From the NCBI GenBank assembly GCA_903845125.1, contig CAIMWS010000526.1, positions 429-64,428 of the forward strand: DNA of 64,000 nt, written 5' to 3'. Below are positions 27,566 to 34,527 of the stretch, in pieces (the first letter of the stretch is position 1; each line of letters begins with the position of its first letter). A program made the translations under genes and the position numbers. Below the pieces are notes generated by a model. That model made no database searches, was not told where the DNA came from, and worked only from the letters and a program-made list of their open reading frames with translations. The stretch comes from an uncultured Verrucomicrobiota bacterium (lineage in GTDB: Bacteria; Verrucomicrobiota; Verrucomicrobiia; Limisphaerales; UBA1319).

Positions 27566-29404
27566 TCATGGCTTGGTGATCTTTTCAGGCTCCCCGCTGG
27601 GGCCATGGCCCGCCCCGCCGGGACGCTGCGCAAACGCGGTCAAAGCGCCCACCAGGAACACCAGGGGATAGGCCTCCTCGTGATACCAAAGCGAGGCGAA
27701 GTAAAGGCCGATGGGGGCGGGCAGCAGGGCCGTTCCCAGGCGGGTCCGCTCCAGCAACCAGGCCAGGCCGCGCTCCGCCGCCTGGGCATACCGGGGACCG
27801 GCCAGGGCCAGGGCGCGGGTGGCCAGGGCCGTTTCCTCGACCGAAGCCGGCACGCCCTGGCTGCCGCCCCAGCCCCCGTCCTGGTTTTGCGCCGACTCCA
27901 GCCACTGGCATCCCTTGGCGATCAGGGGCGGGAGGGTGGCGAACTCCACCGGATCCAGCGCGCCCAGCGCCAGCACCACCTGGGCCGTGCCGTAAACCGG
28001 ATTGAGGTGGTCGGGCGCTGCCTGGTTGCCGAACCATAGCGGAACCCAGGCGCCTTCCGGAGCCTGGCTTTTGGCCAGGTAATCGAGGCCGCGCCTCAAG
28101 GCGGCTCCGATCCGCCGTTGCAGGCCGGCCCCGACCTCTTCCCGCCAGGCCACCCAAGCCCGCAGGGCATGGGCGGTGAGATCGGGGCAACTGCGGTCGA
28201 AAGGCAATTTGCCCCAGCCACGGCAGAAGGTCGGCAGGCCGCCGTCGCGGTTTTGCAGAGCCAGCAGCCACCGGATGCCGGCCACGGCCGCCCGCCGCGT
28301 GCCGGCCGGGGCGCCCAGTTTTTTCAAAGCCAGCAGGGCGCCGGAGGTGTCATCGGCGTCGGGAACCCCACCGGAAAGGTCCGTCCAGGCCCAGCCGCCG
28401 GGAGCGGCCCGGGTGAACGGATGTGGCCGCTGGTGCTGCTGGCCGAGCAGCCATTGGAGCACCGCCTGGCGCTGGGTGGAGGAGAGGCTTTGATCCACCT
28501 CCGCATCCAGGTTGTTGATGGCCAGGGTGGTGACCCAGGTGGCCAGATTGGTGTCGATCGGCCAGCTGCCATCGGGGCGGACCGAGGCCTCGAGGAACCG
28601 GACCCCATCCCGGGCGGCCGGGTGGCCGGCATGGCCGGCAGCCGCCAGCCCCAAGGCCACAAACGCGGTCAGGGGCGTCGCTTCCAGGAACCCGCCGGAA
28701 GCGGGCTGCATGCGCCGCAGGATTCCCAGGGCGCGCCGCCGCTGCCACTCCCGCAGCCAACCCAGGATGGACCAGCGGCGGCGGGCATGATGGTGGCGGA
28801 CCAGCCCGATGGCGATCAGCGCCGGGATGGCATAACTGACCACCGACAACCGCAGCCAGCGAAACAAGGCCCCGGGCAGCAGCGCCAGTTCAAAGGGCAA
28901 CTGGGGCACCCGCGCCCAGGCCTGGCCCGCCTCGCCCAGGCGGCCCGCCAGGGCGCACACGGTGAGGATGGGCGCGGAGAACGTACGATCCTGGCCATAA
29001 AACCGGAGGACCGCCGCCGCGATCGTGGCCGGGTCCAGCCCGCCCAGGCGCTGGCGCAGCCAATCCTCCGTCTTTTGAAGCACCGGCGCGAACCGGCCGG
29101 GCACGGCTTGGGATAACGCCGCCCACGCCAGCAGCGTGGTGCTCAGGTTGGCCGGGCTGGCAGGGGTGTCGCCCCACCCGCCACCGGGATTGAGGTGATC
29201 CGCCAGCCACTGGCAACCCTGGTCCACCAGCCGGGCGTGGTGCTGGCGATCGATCGTCCCCAAGGCCAGCACGGCGACGGCGGTCGAGAGCGCGCTGCTC
29301 GCCAGCCGCCCCTCCCAACACCCCGCGGGATTGAAGGTGGCCAGGAGCTTTTGCCGGGCATTGGCCAGCGCCTGGTGGGCTTGTGGGTGGAGCGACCGGC
29401 TCAT
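27566..29404 (-). CDS. class II terpene cyclase, squalene-hopene-cyclase-like (612 aa)
   Basis: GGWAWTDLSGGVPDADDTSGALLAL carries a DxDD(T) protonation motif (D-A-D-D at 28349..28360). QW-like repeats: LQNRDGGL, AQNQDGGWGG, VRPDGSWP, LNPGGGWG. The start is trimmed to ATG 29404, 7 nt after the upstream stop. The 794-aa ORF extension overlaps gene 29412..30362 in another frame. Confidence 0.8.
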   Translation of the reverse strand: MSRSLHPQAHQALANARQKLLATFNPAGCWEGRLASSALSTAVAVLALGTIDRQHHARLVDQGCQWLADHLNPGGGWGDTPASPANLSTTLLAWAALSQAVPGRFAPVLQKTEDWLRQRLGGLDPATIAAAVLRFYGQDRTFSAPILTVCALAGRLGEAGQAWARVPQLPFELALLPGALFRWLRLSVVSYAIPALIAIGLVRHHHARRRWSILGWLREWQRRRALGILRRMQPASGGFLEATPLTAFVALGLAAAGHAGHPAARDGVRFLEASVRPDGSWPIDTNLATWVTTLAINNLDAEVDQSLSSTQRQAVLQWLLGQQHQRPHPFTRAAPGGWAWTDLSGGVPDADDTSGALLALKKLGAPAGTRRAAVAGIRWLLALQNRDGGLPTFCRGWGKLPFDRSCPDLTAHALRAWVAWREEVGAGLQRRIGAALRRGLDYLAKSQAPEGAWVPLWFGNQAAPDHLNPVYGTAQVVLALGALDPVEFATLPPLIAKGCQWLESAQNQDGGWGGSQGVPASVEETALATRALALAGPRYAQAAERGLAWLLERTRLGTALLPAPIGLYFASLWYHEEAYPLVFLVGALTAFAQRPGGAGHGPSGEPEKITKP

Positions 29405-29411
29405 GCGCGGG

Positions 29412-30362
29412 TCAGGCCAGCAGGTGCCCCAGGGCCAGCAGCCCGTAAAAGGTGTATTCGCTGTCCACCTCGTGGTCGGCCAGGTGGCCGCCAAAGCCGC
29501 CCCCCTCCGCCCAGAGCGATTCCACGAATTCCAGGCAGGCCTGGCGGCCCTCCGCCAGCGGCTGTCCCATGGCCGCCAAAGCGTGCAGGGCGGTGGCCGT
29601 GGAGAGGAGGTCCGGCATGGGGGTTCCCGCCGCCGCCAGGAATCCGCCGCAGGGATGCAGCCGGTCCCGCAAGAATCCGGCGGCGGCCGCGGGCACCGGG
29701 CATCCCAGGCGGGACCACAGCACCAGACCGGCGGCGGCCACCGGCGTGGCGCCGGCCCACACTTCGGATCCGGCCGGGGAGTGGCCTCCCCCAGCCGCCA
29801 ACTGGCCCGCCCAGCGCTGGAAATCCCCAAGCCGGGGCATCGCCAAGCCCGATTCCTCGTAGGCCAGCAGCGCCAGGAATCCGTCGTAGATGGATCCGCT
29901 GCGCGCCGGGGGGGCAGCCGGAGCGCCCGCGCCCACCGCGCTCCGCTCATAACCGCCGTCCGGGCAGCGGAATTGTTCCAAACCGTGGAAGACCTGCTGG
30001 TTCACCGCCGTCTCCCCACGGGTTTCCGGCAGCAAGCCCCGGCAGCGGGCCAGGCAGATCCGGTGGACGAAATCCAACCCCGCGCCCGTGGCGAATCCGC
30101 GCAGGTATCCGGCCGTGAGCGGTGCGGCGGGCAGGCCCAAGCCCTGGCAGCAGGCCAGCTGGAACACCGAATAATAGAGATCGGCCGCCCCCCCCCGCCC
30201 CCGGGCAGCTCCCTCCGGAAGCCATTGGCGCCGGAGAAAATCGGCCAACTGGCCGCGCAGGGCGGGATCCAGGCTCCCGGCCGCCCGGTGGATGACGGCC
30301 AGCATTTCCTGGCTGATGGTCTGGCTCACCGTTGGGGGGACTGGCGCGCTGTCAGCCGGCAT
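29412..30362 (-). CDS. prenyltransferase / terpene-cyclase alpha-alpha-toroid repeat protein (no DxDD motif)
   Basis: Repeats of the prenyltransferase beta-subunit type: CPDGGYE, HPCGGFLAA, AEGGGFGGHLADHEVDSEYTFYGLLALGHL. ATG at 30362 overlaps the last 11 nt of the upstream gene. Confidence 0.7.
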   Translation of the reverse strand: MPADSAPVPPTVSQTISQEMLAVIHRAAGSLDPALRGQLADFLRRQWLPEGAARGRGGAADLYYSVFQLACCQGLGLPAAPLTAGYLRGFATGAGLDFVHRICLARCRGLLPETRGETAVNQQVFHGLEQFRCPDGGYERSAVGAGAPAAPPARSGSIYDGFLALLAYEESGLAMPRLGDFQRWAGQLAAGGGHSPAGSEVWAGATPVAAAGLVLWSRLGCPVPAAAAGFLRDRLHPCGGFLAAAGTPMPDLLSTATALHALAAMGQPLAEGRQACLEFVESLWAEGGGFGGHLADHEVDSEYTFYGLLALGHLLA

Positions 30363-32052
30363 CGACAATCCTTCCGACCAGCCGCCGCAGCAGGCCTTTG
30401 AGCTGCGCGTTGCGCAGGGGGCTGAGGGAACGGATGGCCTCGTTTTTGTAATGCTCCAGCAGCTGCTGGGCCTTTTCCTCCACGCGCTGGGCGGCCATCG
30501 CGGACCGGATCAAGGCGGGCAGCTGGCGATCCCGGGCCGCGGATTTCCAGGCCTCCACCATGGCGGCCTGCATATCCCCGGCGGCATTTTCGTAGGCCAG
30601 GGCCTGCAGGATGGAAGGCTGCAGCGCGGGCAGGCCGGTGGCCTGGGTGTTCAGGTCATCGAGGTCGTCGCGGATCTGAAAGGCGATCCCCAGGGATTCG
30701 CTGAAGGTCTTGAGCACCGGGTGCACCTCGCTCCCGGCCTGGCCGCAGAGGGCGCCGATCCGCAGGGCCACCTCGAAGGCCGGTGCGGTTTTCCGCCGGA
30801 ACAGCTCGAGCACCTTGCGGGGGGAGAGGGCCCCGGGGTCGCGCATCCAGCACAACTCCTCGCCCTGGCCCAGGCAAAGGTTGTGGTGGGCCTCCGCCAC
30901 CACCGCCAGCATGTCCGCCACCTGGGCCGGAGGCGCGCCGCTGGCGGCCACCAGCCGGTATCCTTCACCCAGCAGGAAATCGCCGATGTTCACCGCGATG
31001 GGGATGCCGTGGCTCTGGTGAACCGTCGGGCTGCCGTAGCGGAAGCTGTCCTCGTCCTCGATGTCGTCGTGGACCAGCGAAGCTTTGTGGAAGCATTCCA
31101 TGGCCACCGCCAGTTTCCGCACGGAATCCGGCAGGGGGCCCTCTTCCAGGCCGGTCACCGCCCGGTAAACGCAGGCCGCCAGCACCGGCCGCCAGCGCTT
31201 GCCCGCTCCGGAGAGCCAGCCCAGCGCGATTTCCCCGGTCTGGGTGTTTTCCAGGGCCAGGATGGCGCGCAGCGCCTCCGGCTGGAACCACGTCTCCACC
31301 TCCAGCTTGAGCCGGTCGATATCCACCCGGCCCAGCCAGGAGGCGTTGGATTTCAGCTGGATCGCCTCCACCACCCAATCCAGGTCCACCGCGGTGTTCT
31401 CGCAGCCGTCCCGCACCAGCGGCAGGGCCAGGCCCGGGATGGCGTGGGCCGCCATGTGCGGAAAGGCGCGCTCCAGCACCGGGAGGCAGCTGACGCCGAT
31501 CACGGCATCCACCGTGCCCTGCTCGAGCAGCCGGGTGACCACCGTGGTGCCCTCCGCCACCAGCACCACGTAGCCGAGCTGCTCGGCCCGGGCCTGGATG
31601 CCGCCGGTCGGACATTGCCCGCACTGTTCGCAAAGCAGCCCGAGTTTGTCCATGGGGGCCGGGCAGGTTTTTTTGTCGCGCAGGCATTGGGGCAGCATCA
31701 ATACCCGGCGGTCGTACGGGATGCCCGCCATGGTGTCCCACCACACCGCGTTGGCGGTGAGGACCGTGATGAAATCGCGGTAGTCCGCGCGAAAGCCGGT
31801 GGCTGCCAGGATCGCATCCGCATGCCCCCGCAGCTCTTCGATGGAGAGGGGGGGCACCAGCTCCCGCTGCACCACATATTGGCGCACCGCCGTCCGGACG
31901 GCCTCCCGCTCCGCCTTCTGCGGGGGGACCTTGATCCCCTGGCCGGCGGAGCTGGCGTGCCCATGCACCGAGGGATCGGCCAGGGCGTGGGCGAGGCTGC
32001 TCCGGGCGGCAGCGGGCTGGAATTCGGGTTTCATGCGGTTCAGTGTTGCCAA
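30352..32052 (-). CDS. fusion of a Cys-rich DUF116-like domain with a trans-polyprenyl diphosphate synthase
   Basis: The C-terminal half has both Asp-rich motifs: DDIED at 31054..31068 and DDLDD at 30655..30669. The N-terminal half (RRVLMLPQCLRDKKTCPAP..LCEQCGQCP..VLVAEGTTVV..VIGVSCLP..DGCENT) resembles DUF116. Start is TTG 32052 or ATG 32034. Confidence 0.8.
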   Translation of the reverse strand: MATLNRMKPEFQPAAARSSLAHALADPSVHGHASSAGQGIKVPPQKAEREAVRTAVRQYVVQRELVPPLSIEELRGHADAILAATGFRADYRDFITVLTANAVWWDTMAGIPYDRRVLMLPQCLRDKKTCPAPMDKLGLLCEQCGQCPTGGIQARAEQLGYVVLVAEGTTVVTRLLEQGTVDAVIGVSCLPVLERAFPHMAAHAIPGLALPLVRDGCENTAVDLDWVVEAIQLKSNASWLGRVDIDRLKLEVETWFQPEALRAILALENTQTGEIALGWLSGAGKRWRPVLAACVYRAVTGLEEGPLPDSVRKLAVAMECFHKASLVHDDIEDEDSFRYGSPTVHQSHGIPIAVNIGDFLLGEGYRLVAASGAPPAQVADMLAVVAEAHHNLCLGQGEELCWMRDPGALSPRKVLELFRRKTAPAFEVALRIGALCGQAGSEVHPVLKTFSESLGIAFQIRDDLDDLNTQATGLPALQPSILQALAYENAAGDMQAAMVEAWKSAARDRQLPALIRSAMAAQRVEEKAQQLLEHYKNEAIRSLSPLRNAQLKGLLRRLVGRIVDAG

Positions 32053-32062
32053 TGCCGGCGCC

Positions 32063-33256
32063 TCAACCGTAAGCCCCGAAGCCGAAAAACCAATGTTTTT
32101 TGGCGAAGCGGTAAACCCAGCTGCGCTCGGGTATTTCCTGGCCGGGCACGTGGTGGCTGGGCCGCGGCCGCAGGGCGGCCAGCTCGGCGAGGCCCGTGTT
32201 CCGGCCGGTCGTATCCGCGGCGCCCTCCCGCTCCAGGAACTGGCGGAGTTCCGCGGGGTGGTCCATGATCACACAGCCGCGGGTGGTGCGGGCGGAGAAT
32301 TCCCGGAACCGGGCGAGGTATTCTGAATGGGATATTTTTTCCACCAACCCGCGGCCATCCCCAATGTTTTCCTTCGCGAATTGAATGACCGGGCACGGCT
32401 CGATATCCCCGCCCGGGCCGATGTGGTGGCTGATGCCGGTGGCCGCGGGGCAGAGCGCCCGGCCCGCGTGGTCCCAGTAGGCATCCACCAGGATCAGGGG
32501 CGCGTGGCACCGGGTGTCCACCATGAACCGCCGCAACTGGAGGATCTCCGCCGTCTCCAGCGCCAACTCCGGGGCGGGGGTGGCCCCCACCGGCCGGTAA
32601 ATATAATACCACAGGTAATGCGCGCCCCGCCGCACCAGGTCATTCACAAAATCCTGGCTGGCGAGATCGGCAAAATTGGAGCGGCAGACGCTGGTGGCCA
32701 CGCCGATGAACAATCCCTGGCGGCGGCAGTGCTCCAGCCCTTCCATGGCCCGTCGGTAAACCTCGCGGCCGCCCCGGCGTTCGTCGCTCACCCGCTCCCG
32801 GCCCTCGATGCTGATCAAAGGGGTTACGTTGCCCAGCCGGCGCATTTCGCGGGCATGGTCTTCGGTTAGGAGGGTGCCGTTGGTGAACACCTGGAAATAG
32901 CAGTCCGGGTGCCGGCCGATCACCTCGAACAACCCTGCGTGCAGCAGCGGTTCGCCGCCGAGGATCCCGAAAAAGGAGGCCCCCATCTGTTGACACTCGA
33001 CGATGGTCTGCTCCAGCGTGGCGCTGTCCAGGGCACGGGCGGGCCGGTCCACGCTCACCCAGCAGCCCTGGCAACGCAGGTTGCAGGCGCTGGTCACGGA
33101 GAGAAACACGAACGCCGGGAAGGGGCGGCCTTGCTTGAGCCGCCGGTTGAAGGCGCCGATGGCCCGCATGCCTTTCCAGCCGCAATTCCACGCCAGCTTG
33201 GCCAGCAGGCGGGTATCACACTCCTTCAGCAGCCGGTAAGTTAATCGGGCCAGCAT
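32063..33256 (-). CDS. radical SAM enzyme (no B12-binding or SPASM domain evident)
   Basis: CNLRCQGC (CxxxCxxC) at 33062..33085, followed by GGEPLLH and a TIM-barrel-like core. ATG at 33256 is preceded by GAGGA. Confidence 0.85.
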   Translation of the reverse strand: MLARLTYRLLKECDTRLLAKLAWNCGWKGMRAIGAFNRRLKQGRPFPAFVFLSVTSACNLRCQGCWVSVDRPARALDSATLEQTIVECQQMGASFFGILGGEPLLHAGLFEVIGRHPDCYFQVFTNGTLLTEDHAREMRRLGNVTPLISIEGRERVSDERRGGREVYRRAMEGLEHCRRQGLFIGVATSVCRSNFADLASQDFVNDLVRRGAHYLWYYIYRPVGATPAPELALETAEILQLRRFMVDTRCHAPLILVDAYWDHAGRALCPAATGISHHIGPGGDIEPCPVIQFAKENIGDGRGLVEKISHSEYLARFREFSARTTRGCVIMDHPAELRQFLEREGAADTTGRNTGLAELAALRPRPSHHVPGQEIPERSWVYRFAKKHWFFGFGAYG

Positions 33257-33260
33257 GATT

Positions 33261-33265
33261 TCCTC
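33261..33265 (-). promoter_or_regulatory. Shine-Dalgarno-like GAGGA for the radical SAM gene
   Basis: The minus strand reads TGA GAGGAAATC ATG between the ferredoxin stop (33266..33268) and the radical SAM start (33256). Confidence 0.45.
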
Positions 33266-33997
33266 TCAACTTTCATCCACGACCGGGTCTTTGACAAGCC
33301 GGGTCCGCGACTGCTTCCGGCGCGCGGCCAAGGCCGCATAGGCATCGGTCCCCAGCACCTCCGCCAGGTTGATCTTCACGCGGCCCTTCTCCACGCTCTG
33401 TTCATCCACCGGCGATCCATCCACCGGGGCCTGATTGAACTTCGGGAACATGATGGCCGCCTCGGGGCAGACCCGGGCGCAGGCGGGGCAGTTGTTTTTG
33501 CAGCTTTGGGGATCCGCCACGGTGATCCAGCCCCGCTCATCTCTTGCGTAAACGCCAAACAGGCAAAAGCTCAAGCATTGCCGGCAGTTGTTGCACCGGT
33601 CGAAGTCAATCACCGGGAACCATGGCGCCCAGCTTTCCGGGGGCGCTGGCGAAGGGGTGCCCGGGCCGGGGCTGGGCGGTTCCGCCACCGGCGGCACGGA
33701 GGCCGGGGCGATTCCTTCCCGCATTTCCCCTCCGGCAGCCAGGGCCACGAGGCGGGCGGCCACCGTGTCCGCTGATTCCACGCGCAGGTTGGAGCAATCC
33801 ACGCCGGCCGCCCATGTGTGCCCCGCGGCGTGGAGCAGCCATTTCACCGCCCGCGGATGACAGGCCACGATCCGCAGGGGGTTGCCGGCCAGCATTTCGC
33901 GCAATGCCGGGCTTCTCCGGCCCACCAAGCCGCACAGGTCCGGCACCGCCAGGTGGGGAATCCGCGCTTGTTCCAGCGCGGCCAGAACCTGGCCCAC
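33266..33997 (-). CDS. 4Fe-4S dicluster ferredoxin-domain protein (N-terminus uncertain)
   Basis: CNNCRQCLSFC and CKNNCPACARVCP lie at 33467..33595. The annotated start is GTG 33997. In-frame sequence upstream (GPTILLCRCSDREPAFSAA) still looks coding; see the findings. Confidence 0.7.
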   Translation of the reverse strand: MGQVLAALEQARIPHLAVPDLCGLVGRRSPALREMLAGNPLRIVACHPRAVKWLLHAAGHTWAAGVDCSNLRVESADTVAARLVALAAGGEMREGIAPASVPPVAEPPSPGPGTPSPAPPESWAPWFPVIDFDRCNNCRQCLSFCLFGVYARDERGWITVADPQSCKNNCPACARVCPEAAIMFPKFNQAPVDGSPVDEQSVEKGRVKINLAEVLGTDAYAALAARRKQSRTRLVKDPVVDES

Positions 33998-34527
33998 CGC
34001 CGCGGAAAAAGCCGGCTCCCGATCCGAGCATCGGCAGAGCAGGATCGTCGGGCCTCACGTTTCACAATATTCTCCGTGGCGGACATGGTCATCAATTCCA
34101 GCACATGAATTAAACCCAGGCTTCGGCAAGCGTCAAATAGGAATCCAGCGGGGCACCGGCCGGGAATGAGGCCCGCCCCCAGCCAGTCTGCGGCGCCCCC
34201 GGCAGATCCCGGGAACCGGCCACGGCCAAACTGAAAATGCATAACGAACAACCCCGAGCGCCGGACGGCCCGGAACTCAAGCCAGCCGCCGGGCGCCGCC
34301 AATCCCGGGCCGTTTATTACCCGCGGGGCGCGGCAGGCGGATTGGCGCCCCCGATGGGTTGGCCGATGGATTTGCCTTGTTTAGTCTTCCTAAAACAGGG
34401 AGCATGATGCCCAAGCAGTGGTGATTATCGAGCATTATGATCGCCAAGGGTCCGGCGCAGCGGCGGCAGGCTTGGCCAGCCCCTCAGCGCCGGCCACCGG
34501 AGTTTAAACTGGCAGTTGAATACCTAT

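Follow-up and report, generated by a model that had tools for sequence, protein, structure and literature searches.

Which reaction would a radical S-adenosylmethionine (SAM) enzyme perform when its gene stands, next to that of a ferredoxin-like protein, at the head of a terpenoid operon? The question is raised by a 64,000-nucleotide stretch of DNA from an uncultured bacterium of the Verrucomicrobiota (positions 429 to 64,428 of contig CAIMWS010000526.1, assembly GCA_903845125.1; hereafter the window), for which an earlier note, made from the sequence alone, had suggested that the enzyme, served by a ferredoxin of its own, could form a C-C bond on a prenyl product. Five minus-strand genes make up one tight operon there, separated by gaps of 7 to 10 nt or joined by short overlaps, in the order ferredoxin-like protein, radical SAM enzyme (hereafter rSAM), DUF116 domain fused to a polyprenyl synthase (DUF116::synthase), small toroid protein and SHC-like (squalene-hopene-cyclase-like) cyclase (Table 1). 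The first two genes do lead the operon, every motif named in the earlier note was found at its coordinates, and the terpenoid context is kept across phyla, the same gene order being present in Verrucomicrobiota, Planctomycetota, Lentisphaerota, Acidobacteriota, Armatimonadota, Bacteroidota and Myxococcota. As set out below, we consider it quite likely that rSAM performs the radical step of an isoprenoid pathway and that its upstream neighbor is the reductant.

That the protein is a radical SAM enzyme was borne out by the cluster motif CNLRCQGC at residues 58 to 65 (33085..33062), by a GGEP motif and by a Pfam Radical_SAM (PF04055) score of 64.2 bits against a cut-off of 29.5. No curated NCBIfam model came near its cut-off, the best being those for AhbC, NirJ and the mycofactocin maturase (58 to 69 bits, with cut-offs of 265 to 650). 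Thousands of relatives were present among 5.8 billion proteins, and the best 120 of these, which were 58 to 96% identical and nearly all 396 to 398 amino acids (aa) long, carried generic names only (ESM Atlas or cluster labels such as 'MoaA/NifB/PqqE/SkfB family'). A scan of one genome per species gave at least 501 relatives. The taxa in which relatives occur are Verrucomicrobiota, Planctomycetota, Lentisphaerota, Kiritimatiellales, Acidobacteriota (Vicinamibacterales), Armatimonadota, Myxococcota and Bacteroidota (Marinifilaceae, including the cultured Labilibaculum euxinus A4); members of the family are usually 396 to 398 aa long and retain 50 to 70% identity across at least seven phyla. When 32 sequences were aligned, C58, C62 and C65, C191, C269, G283, C288, C328, many Arg and Lys residues and the aromatic strand YLWYYIYRPVG were invariant. 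A second tier of relatives, 30 to 35% identical and 440 to 500 aa long, some of them with a Pfam SPASM domain, was also unnamed; that these might be Tes was considered and rejected. On sequence grounds, we assign rSAM to an unnamed and uncharacterized family, and a literature search returned no paper on this family, its ferredoxin or the DUF116 fusion.

The earlier note had seen no SPASM extension in rSAM, which turned out to be wrong. The first SPASM half-motif, CX9-15GX4C located after the core barrel, is present as C269-x13-G283-x4-C288 in 32 of 32 sequences, forming a half-SPASM or 'twitch' motif that is invariant throughout. The second half-motif, CX2CX5CX3C, which would make a full SPASM domain with two auxiliary clusters, is missing, only one later Cys (C328) being invariant, and the Pfam SPASM domain gave no match in rSAM. 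With the first half present and the second missing, the enzyme is twitch-like rather than full SPASM, and it probably carries one auxiliary [4Fe-4S] cluster in addition to the SAM cluster.

In an AlphaFold model of rSAM (predicted local distance difference test [pLDDT], 90), the predicted fold fits twitch and SPASM enzymes best. The closest structures were SkfB (Z 25.3, root mean square deviation 3.4, 287 residues aligned), SuiB (Z 24.4), anSME (Z 23.5) and BlsE (Z 22.7), with MoaA, PqqE and CteB also among the top matches, and Foldseek E-values for the twitch and SPASM matches ranged from 2e-15 to 1e-11. The likeness to SkfB, BlsE, MoaA, BtrN, anSME and SuiB extends over 276 to 302 residues (Z 19.7 to 25.3) and includes the CX9-15GX4C half-motif. 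rSAM nevertheless differs from these enzymes in several ways: identity is only 14 to 20%, it lacks a peptide-recognition domain, its genomic surroundings are terpenoid and not those of a peptide, sugar or cofactor, and about 65 extra C-terminal residues end in an invariant aromatic and glycine-rich tail. Within this tail, YRFAKKxWFFGFGAYG, the alignment of 32 sequences showed 12 of the last 16 positions to be invariant and 15 to be conserved in at least 90% of the sequences. Membrane association through the tail, another suggestion of the earlier note, is unproven, given that rSAM has no transmembrane segment and its tail a low helical hydrophobic moment. Since its sequence is invariant across phyla, a specific contact fits better than a generic membrane anchor.

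The two ferredoxin-type Cys clusters reported for the upstream neighbor were recovered as CNNCRQCLSFC and CKNNCPACARVCP (Cys 135 to 177, at 33595..33467). Pfam scored the protein at 27.7 for Fer4_2 (cut-off 24.5) and 27.2 for Fer4_6 (cut-off 25), and the two Cys motifs together with these scores identify a 2x[4Fe-4S] ferredoxin domain. The gene is closely coupled to that of rSAM. A spacer of only 9 nt, containing GAGGA 5 nt ahead of the rSAM start codon, follows its stop codon, and across 80 loci the ferredoxin-like gene lay directly upstream of rSAM in 54, the median overlap being about 10 nt. Moreover, nature has joined the two proteins on two independent occasions, each time with the whole ferredoxin-like protein included, in P0127 (675 aa) and P0275 (772 aa; its cluster has five members, another 772-aa sequence among them), and the ferredoxin parts of these fusions matched the stand-alone protein at E = 3e-47 and 5e-62. 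Because of the natural fusions and the tight gene coupling, we regard the ferredoxin-like protein as a dedicated partner of rSAM, as had been proposed.

Ahead of the ferredoxin domain, the partner protein has an N-terminal four-Cys domain (CxC...DLC...AC(H/Y)PRAV), and it is in this part that the gene is broken in the window. Its true start is the ATG at 34092, and an intact reading is obtained only from a GTG at 33997; compared with a 95%-identical region in a genome of the same genus (G001), 1 nt is deleted between 34051 and 34052. The G001 counterpart reads through from an ATG matching 34092 and encodes 276 aa beginning MTMSATENIVKREAPTILLCRCS, and the stretch lost through the frame break carries the CxC motif conserved in relatives. 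The break may be either an assembly error or a real frameshift, the genome being a draft of 561 contigs. In Planctomycetota, Acidobacteriota and others, the four-Cys domain was seen to have a small gene to itself (about 129 aa; L055:8727-9116 and 34 further loci), which shares a few bases with the ferredoxin gene; in the lineage of the window the domain is fused.

The association of rSAM with the other operon genes was followed in two samples, one of 41 genomes of the window's own order (sample 1) and one of 41 relatives of a Vicinamibacterales genome of the Acidobacteriota (sample 2); both consist of kin and of incomplete genomes, and the counts are descriptive only. Sample 1 had rSAM in 26 genomes, DUF116::synthase in 28 and the SHC-like cyclase in 27, while 11 genomes were without all three. 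All 26 rSAM-positive genomes also had DUF116::synthase, including four with the genes on different contigs. In sample 2, rSAM and DUF116 were adjacent in the same 24 genomes, and neither was found in the other 17, so that DUF116::synthase accompanied rSAM in 50 of 50 rSAM-positive genomes from the two samples together. A genome related to Vicinamibacterales (G048) had two pairs of rSAM and DUF116::synthase on one contig (C3:2580794-2582708 and 6974886-6976800). Three genomes (91, 87 and 75% complete) had rSAM and the synthase together with a canonical SHC only, the SHC-like cyclase not being found, which suggests that rSAM need not have a cyclized product. The enzyme is therefore bound more tightly to the prenyl synthase than to the cyclase, and, with about 40% of related genomes lacking it, it is not a housekeeping enzyme.

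In the synthase, 10 of 11 positions of the FARM motif, FHKASL(I/V)HDDIED, were invariant, and all 56 sequences had Ala and Ser as residues -5 and -4 before the first Asp-rich motif. Small residues at these positions are the pattern of C30-C45 trans-prenyl synthases, and the synthase residues would fit a product of C30 or longer. A model of the fused DUF116 domain (pLDDT 85) gave generic Rossmann-like matches only, with Z at most 7.1, and no Foldseek match at E <= 0.001.

The SHC-like cyclase keeps the DxDD motif in 36 of 38 sequences. Cyclases of this kind were defined as 'SHC-like' in PMC7306690 (Santana-Molina 2020), which describes members from Planctomycetes as retaining the catalytic residues and the genomic context as suggestive of a non-squalene precursor. 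According to PMC7306690 and PMC12324236, the function of this clade, also termed 'unknown function', is not demonstrated and its context points away from squalene as the precursor, and the latter paper reports an excess of substitutions on the surface through which SHC-type cyclases dimerize. Such substitutions would fit a different cyclase partner, for example the small toroid protein. The operon cyclase agrees with the published clade in taxa, length (550 to 700 aa), catalytic motif and non-squalene context, a likeness by description and not by tree. The sections of the two papers drawn on here treat the cyclase alone and mention neither rSAM nor its ferredoxin nor the DUF116 fusion.

The coordinates of the operon features are collected in Table 1. 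An open reading frame (ORF) of 794 aa at the cyclase (27566-29950) is over-extended upstream, its first 182 residues overlapping the toroid gene in another frame, and homologues of the cyclase begin near 29404. On both sides, the operon is flanked by unrelated genes in the opposite orientation, encoding an AraC regulator, an ankyrin protein, a sugar-phosphate isomerase-like protein and a GFO oxidoreductase. A scan for promoters and terminators gave nothing useful.

Table 1. Features of the operon in the window
Feature	Coordinates	Strand	Remarks
Ferredoxin-like partner protein	33266..34092	-	N-terminal four-Cys domain, linker, 2x[4Fe-4S] domain; intact ORF only 33266..33997
Two ferredoxin-type Cys motifs, CX2CX2CX3C and CX3CX2CX3CP	33467..33595	-	Sequence, Pfam
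rSAM, 397 aa (P0001)	32063..33256	-	Unnamed cross-phylum family
CX3CX2C radical SAM cluster motif (C58, C62, C65)	33062..33085	-	
Twitch-type auxiliary-cluster motif C269-x13-G283-x4-C288, then C328	32273..32452	-	All invariant
C191, further invariant Cys of the rSAM core	32684..32686	-	
rSAM C-terminal tail WVYRFAKKHWFFGFGAYG, residues 380-397	32066..32119	-	Family-specific
DUF116 (seven-Cys domain) fused to trans-polyprenyl diphosphate synthase	30352..32052	-	
Single alpha/alpha-toroid protein, 318 aa	29412..30368	-	Prenyltransferase beta subunit-like, without DxDD
'SHC-like' class II cyclase, 612 aa	27566..29404	-	DADD at 28349..28360

Clear orthology to HpnH, or to a housekeeping radical SAM enzyme unrelated to lipids, had been named in the earlier note as an outcome that would refute its proposal, and neither was found. 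The lipid-type enzymes compared with rSAM by sequence were HpnH and Tes/GDGT-MAS, together with the B12-binding domain. On the HpnH model (TIGR03470), rSAM scored 47.7 to 48.2 bits against a curated cut-off of 225, and the C-terminal DUF3463 domain of HpnH was not found in it by Pfam; an assignment to HpnH was rejected, on four tests in all. The genome (G000) has an HpnH of its own, which scored 364 bits on the same model and 125 bits for DUF3463, and an SHC of its own (706 bits) on another contig than HpnH. When rSAM was compared with this HpnH, BLASTP aligned 76 residues at 25% identity. A profile-profile comparison with HpnH in hhalign gave a probability of 96.7%, confined to the core (columns 36-213, 173 columns). 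The two enzymes have in common the radical SAM type, the homologous core, isoprenoid-lipid metabolism, a basic helix at the N-terminus and the company of a class II cyclase pathway. They differ in that identity is 19 to 25%, in the core only, that the place of the DUF3463 domain is taken by the twitch motif in rSAM, and that a Cys invariant in the HpnH alignment at a 'CTNG' strand aligns to 'FTNG' in rSAM. In addition, 38 of 41 related genomes carry HpnH, irrespective of the cassette. The HpnH proteins of the window's order (L108:2970-4361 and L110-L123) were observed to be about 445 to 480 aa long, with a core insertion of about 45 residues that divides their match to the HpnH model into two pieces. 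A canonical hopanoid-type gene row was also seen in G000 (C148:9000-16500, L108), comprising IspH, an HD-domain protein, HpnH, a B12-binding radical SAM enzyme and an aminotransferase; the true squalene-hopene cyclase of this genome is at C382:22573-24441.

Tes/GDGT-MAS (PDB 7TOL/7TOM) is likewise a radical SAM enzyme that modifies lipids, and it belongs, broadly, to the same structural class, but the 7TOL chain has 526 aa, compared with 397 for rSAM. An assignment to it was rejected, as the profile match (E 1e-5, 27.8 bits) covered core columns 52-179 only and a single-sequence search gave no match. GDGT-MAS ranked eleventh among the structural matches of the rSAM model (Z 17.6), below ten other enzymes, and rSAM is no closer to Tes than to other twitch or SPASM enzymes. 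A cobalamin-dependent enzyme of the HpnP/HpnR type was rejected as well, the B12-binding domain (PF02310) not being found in profile searches, in line with the earlier note.

Clustering of all ORFs in the 80 loci revealed three more upstream genes in 19 to 33 loci from several phyla, encoding a class V aminotransferase of the cysteine desulfurase type, a GcvH-like protein that retains its Lys (EGFKAISD) and a COG0523-type G3E GTPase with a CxCC motif. In sample 1, the GTPase was present in 22 and the GcvH-like protein in 18 of 28 cassette-positive genomes, and neither was found in any of the 13 cassette-negative ones; in G000, the orthologues are unlinked from the operon (GTPase at C294:10263-11366, 57% identical; GcvH-like protein at C544:599-1021, 52% identical). 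It could be hypothesized that rSAM, together with the desulfurase, the GTPase and the ferredoxin, builds or repairs an Fe-S or metal centre on the seven-Cys DUF116 domain, and that this centre, not rSAM, acts on the prenyl diphosphate, by analogy with NifS/NifB/NifEN or HydE/HydG/HydF. Such a cofactor maturase would agree with the restriction of the GTPase and GcvH-like genes to cassette-positive genomes, with the clustering of the trio with DUF116::synthase even when rSAM lies elsewhere (G037 and G040), with the strict co-occurrence of rSAM and DUF116 and with the presence of NifB among the structural matches of rSAM (Z 16.2). We nonetheless consider it unlikely, as searches did not find the trio in roughly one third of the cassette-positive genomes, the DUF116 model resembles only generic Rossmann-like folds and NifB is outscored by many other twitch and SPASM enzymes. 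The same genes could also point to sulfur insertion or C-S bond formation, in which rSAM, working like lipoyl synthase, biotin synthase or the sactisynthases, would insert desulfurase-derived sulfur into the isoprenoid or load it onto the GcvH-like carrier. The upstream position of the desulfurase and the Lys-retaining carrier, the auxiliary-cluster motif of rSAM and the fact that its best structural match, SkfB, makes a thioether are all in keeping with this. Against it, LipA, BioB and MiaB stood far lower in the structural ranking (Z 10 to 14), in many cassette-positive genomes searches did not find the GcvH-like and GTPase genes, and in this genome, where the desulfurase was not sought, these two are unlinked from the operon; we regard sulfur insertion as improbable.

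Two further explanations start from the known relatives of the enzyme. In HpnH-like adenosylation, an adenosyl-terpenoid would arise when the 5'-deoxyadenosyl radical adds to a terminal double bond, in either the polyprenyl chain or the cyclic product. The core homology, the basic N-terminal helix region common to both enzymes and the pairing of rSAM with a cyclase, which resembles that in hopanoid (hpn) gene clusters, argue for this. The HpnH score far below the cut-off, the twitch domain in place of DUF3463, the 'FTNG' that replaces the invariant Cys and the genome's own HpnH argue against it, as does the fact that no nucleosidase gene of the HpnG type was found among the conserved neighbors. 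We give adenosylation somewhat less credence than the cofactor maturase and somewhat more than sulfur insertion. Finally, rSAM could be a housekeeping enzyme, or a maturase of ribosomally synthesized and post-translationally modified peptides (RiPPs), that lies beside terpenoid genes by chance. The top structural matches SkfB, SuiB, CteB and PqqE are indeed RiPP maturases, but among the neighbors no small conserved ORF stood out as a candidate precursor peptide, and ahead of the core the model has two helices only (residues 2-41), too short for a peptide-recognition domain. A chance neighborhood also disagrees with the strict co-occurrence of rSAM and the synthase in two phyla, and a housekeeping role with the absence of the enzyme from about 40% of related genomes. 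The RiPP reading was rejected, and we consider this explanation as a whole very unlikely.

From the gene anatomy, the conservation, the fusions and the co-occurrence, and with rSAM standing outside HpnH, we infer its substrate, chemistry and place in the order of steps as follows. The ferredoxin-like partner, with its four-Cys and 2x[4Fe-4S] domains, would supply electrons to the twitch-type rSAM, and a squalene-independent isoprenoid pathway would have ferredoxin, rSAM and DUF116::synthase as its obligate core. The synthase would most likely build a regular head-to-tail chain of medium or long size, on which, as the linear polyprenyl chain or its diphosphate, rSAM would perform a radical step, either abstracting hydrogen or adding the 5'-deoxyadenosyl radical to a double bond. 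Where present, the small toroid protein and the SHC-like cyclase may then cyclize the product. We estimate the probability of this explanation as a whole, with core, radical step and later cyclization, at about 55%. Three observations weigh against it: two genomes (94 and 75% complete) had the synthase and the cyclase while rSAM was not found; the solved structures nearest to the modeled rSAM are mostly those of peptide-modifying enzymes; and the desulfurase, the GcvH-like protein and the GTPase would be superfluous for simple lipid tailoring and could indicate sulfur chemistry or cofactor assembly. That rSAM acts on the linear chain before cyclization is favored because the core occurs without the SHC-like cyclase in some genomes, and is put forward tentatively, as one possibility. 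It is a long shot that regular (head-to-tail) polycyclic polyprenoids have their biological source in this cassette and give rise to orphan biomarkers of sediments, for instance the extended tricyclic terpanes (cheilanthanes), with rSAM and ferredoxin carrying out a novel, oxygen-independent radical functionalization of the polyprenyl chain. Of the interpretation from which this work started, the radical SAM enzyme, its dedicated ferredoxin and the terpenoid context stand, the absence of SPASM elements does not, and membrane anchoring by the tail is unsupported.

Radical SAM enzymes acting on isoprenoid lipids (HpnH, Tes and Grs) have each opened up new lipid biochemistry and biomarker interpretation. 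The family described here is conserved like a housekeeping enzyme, yet a name, a curated model and an assigned reaction are all lacking, and rSAM is the best-defined unknown step of a cassette whose cyclase two recent papers have flagged as being without a known substrate. With HpnH removed as an explanation, the question of what SHC-like cyclases produce becomes directly testable: the minimal gene set for expression or deletion would comprise the ferredoxin, rSAM and DUF116::synthase, to which the two toroid proteins may be added, and the natural ferredoxin::rSAM fusion could be used as a single-chain construct. Together with its ferredoxin, rSAM would thus mark one step of a widespread bacterial isoprenoid pathway.

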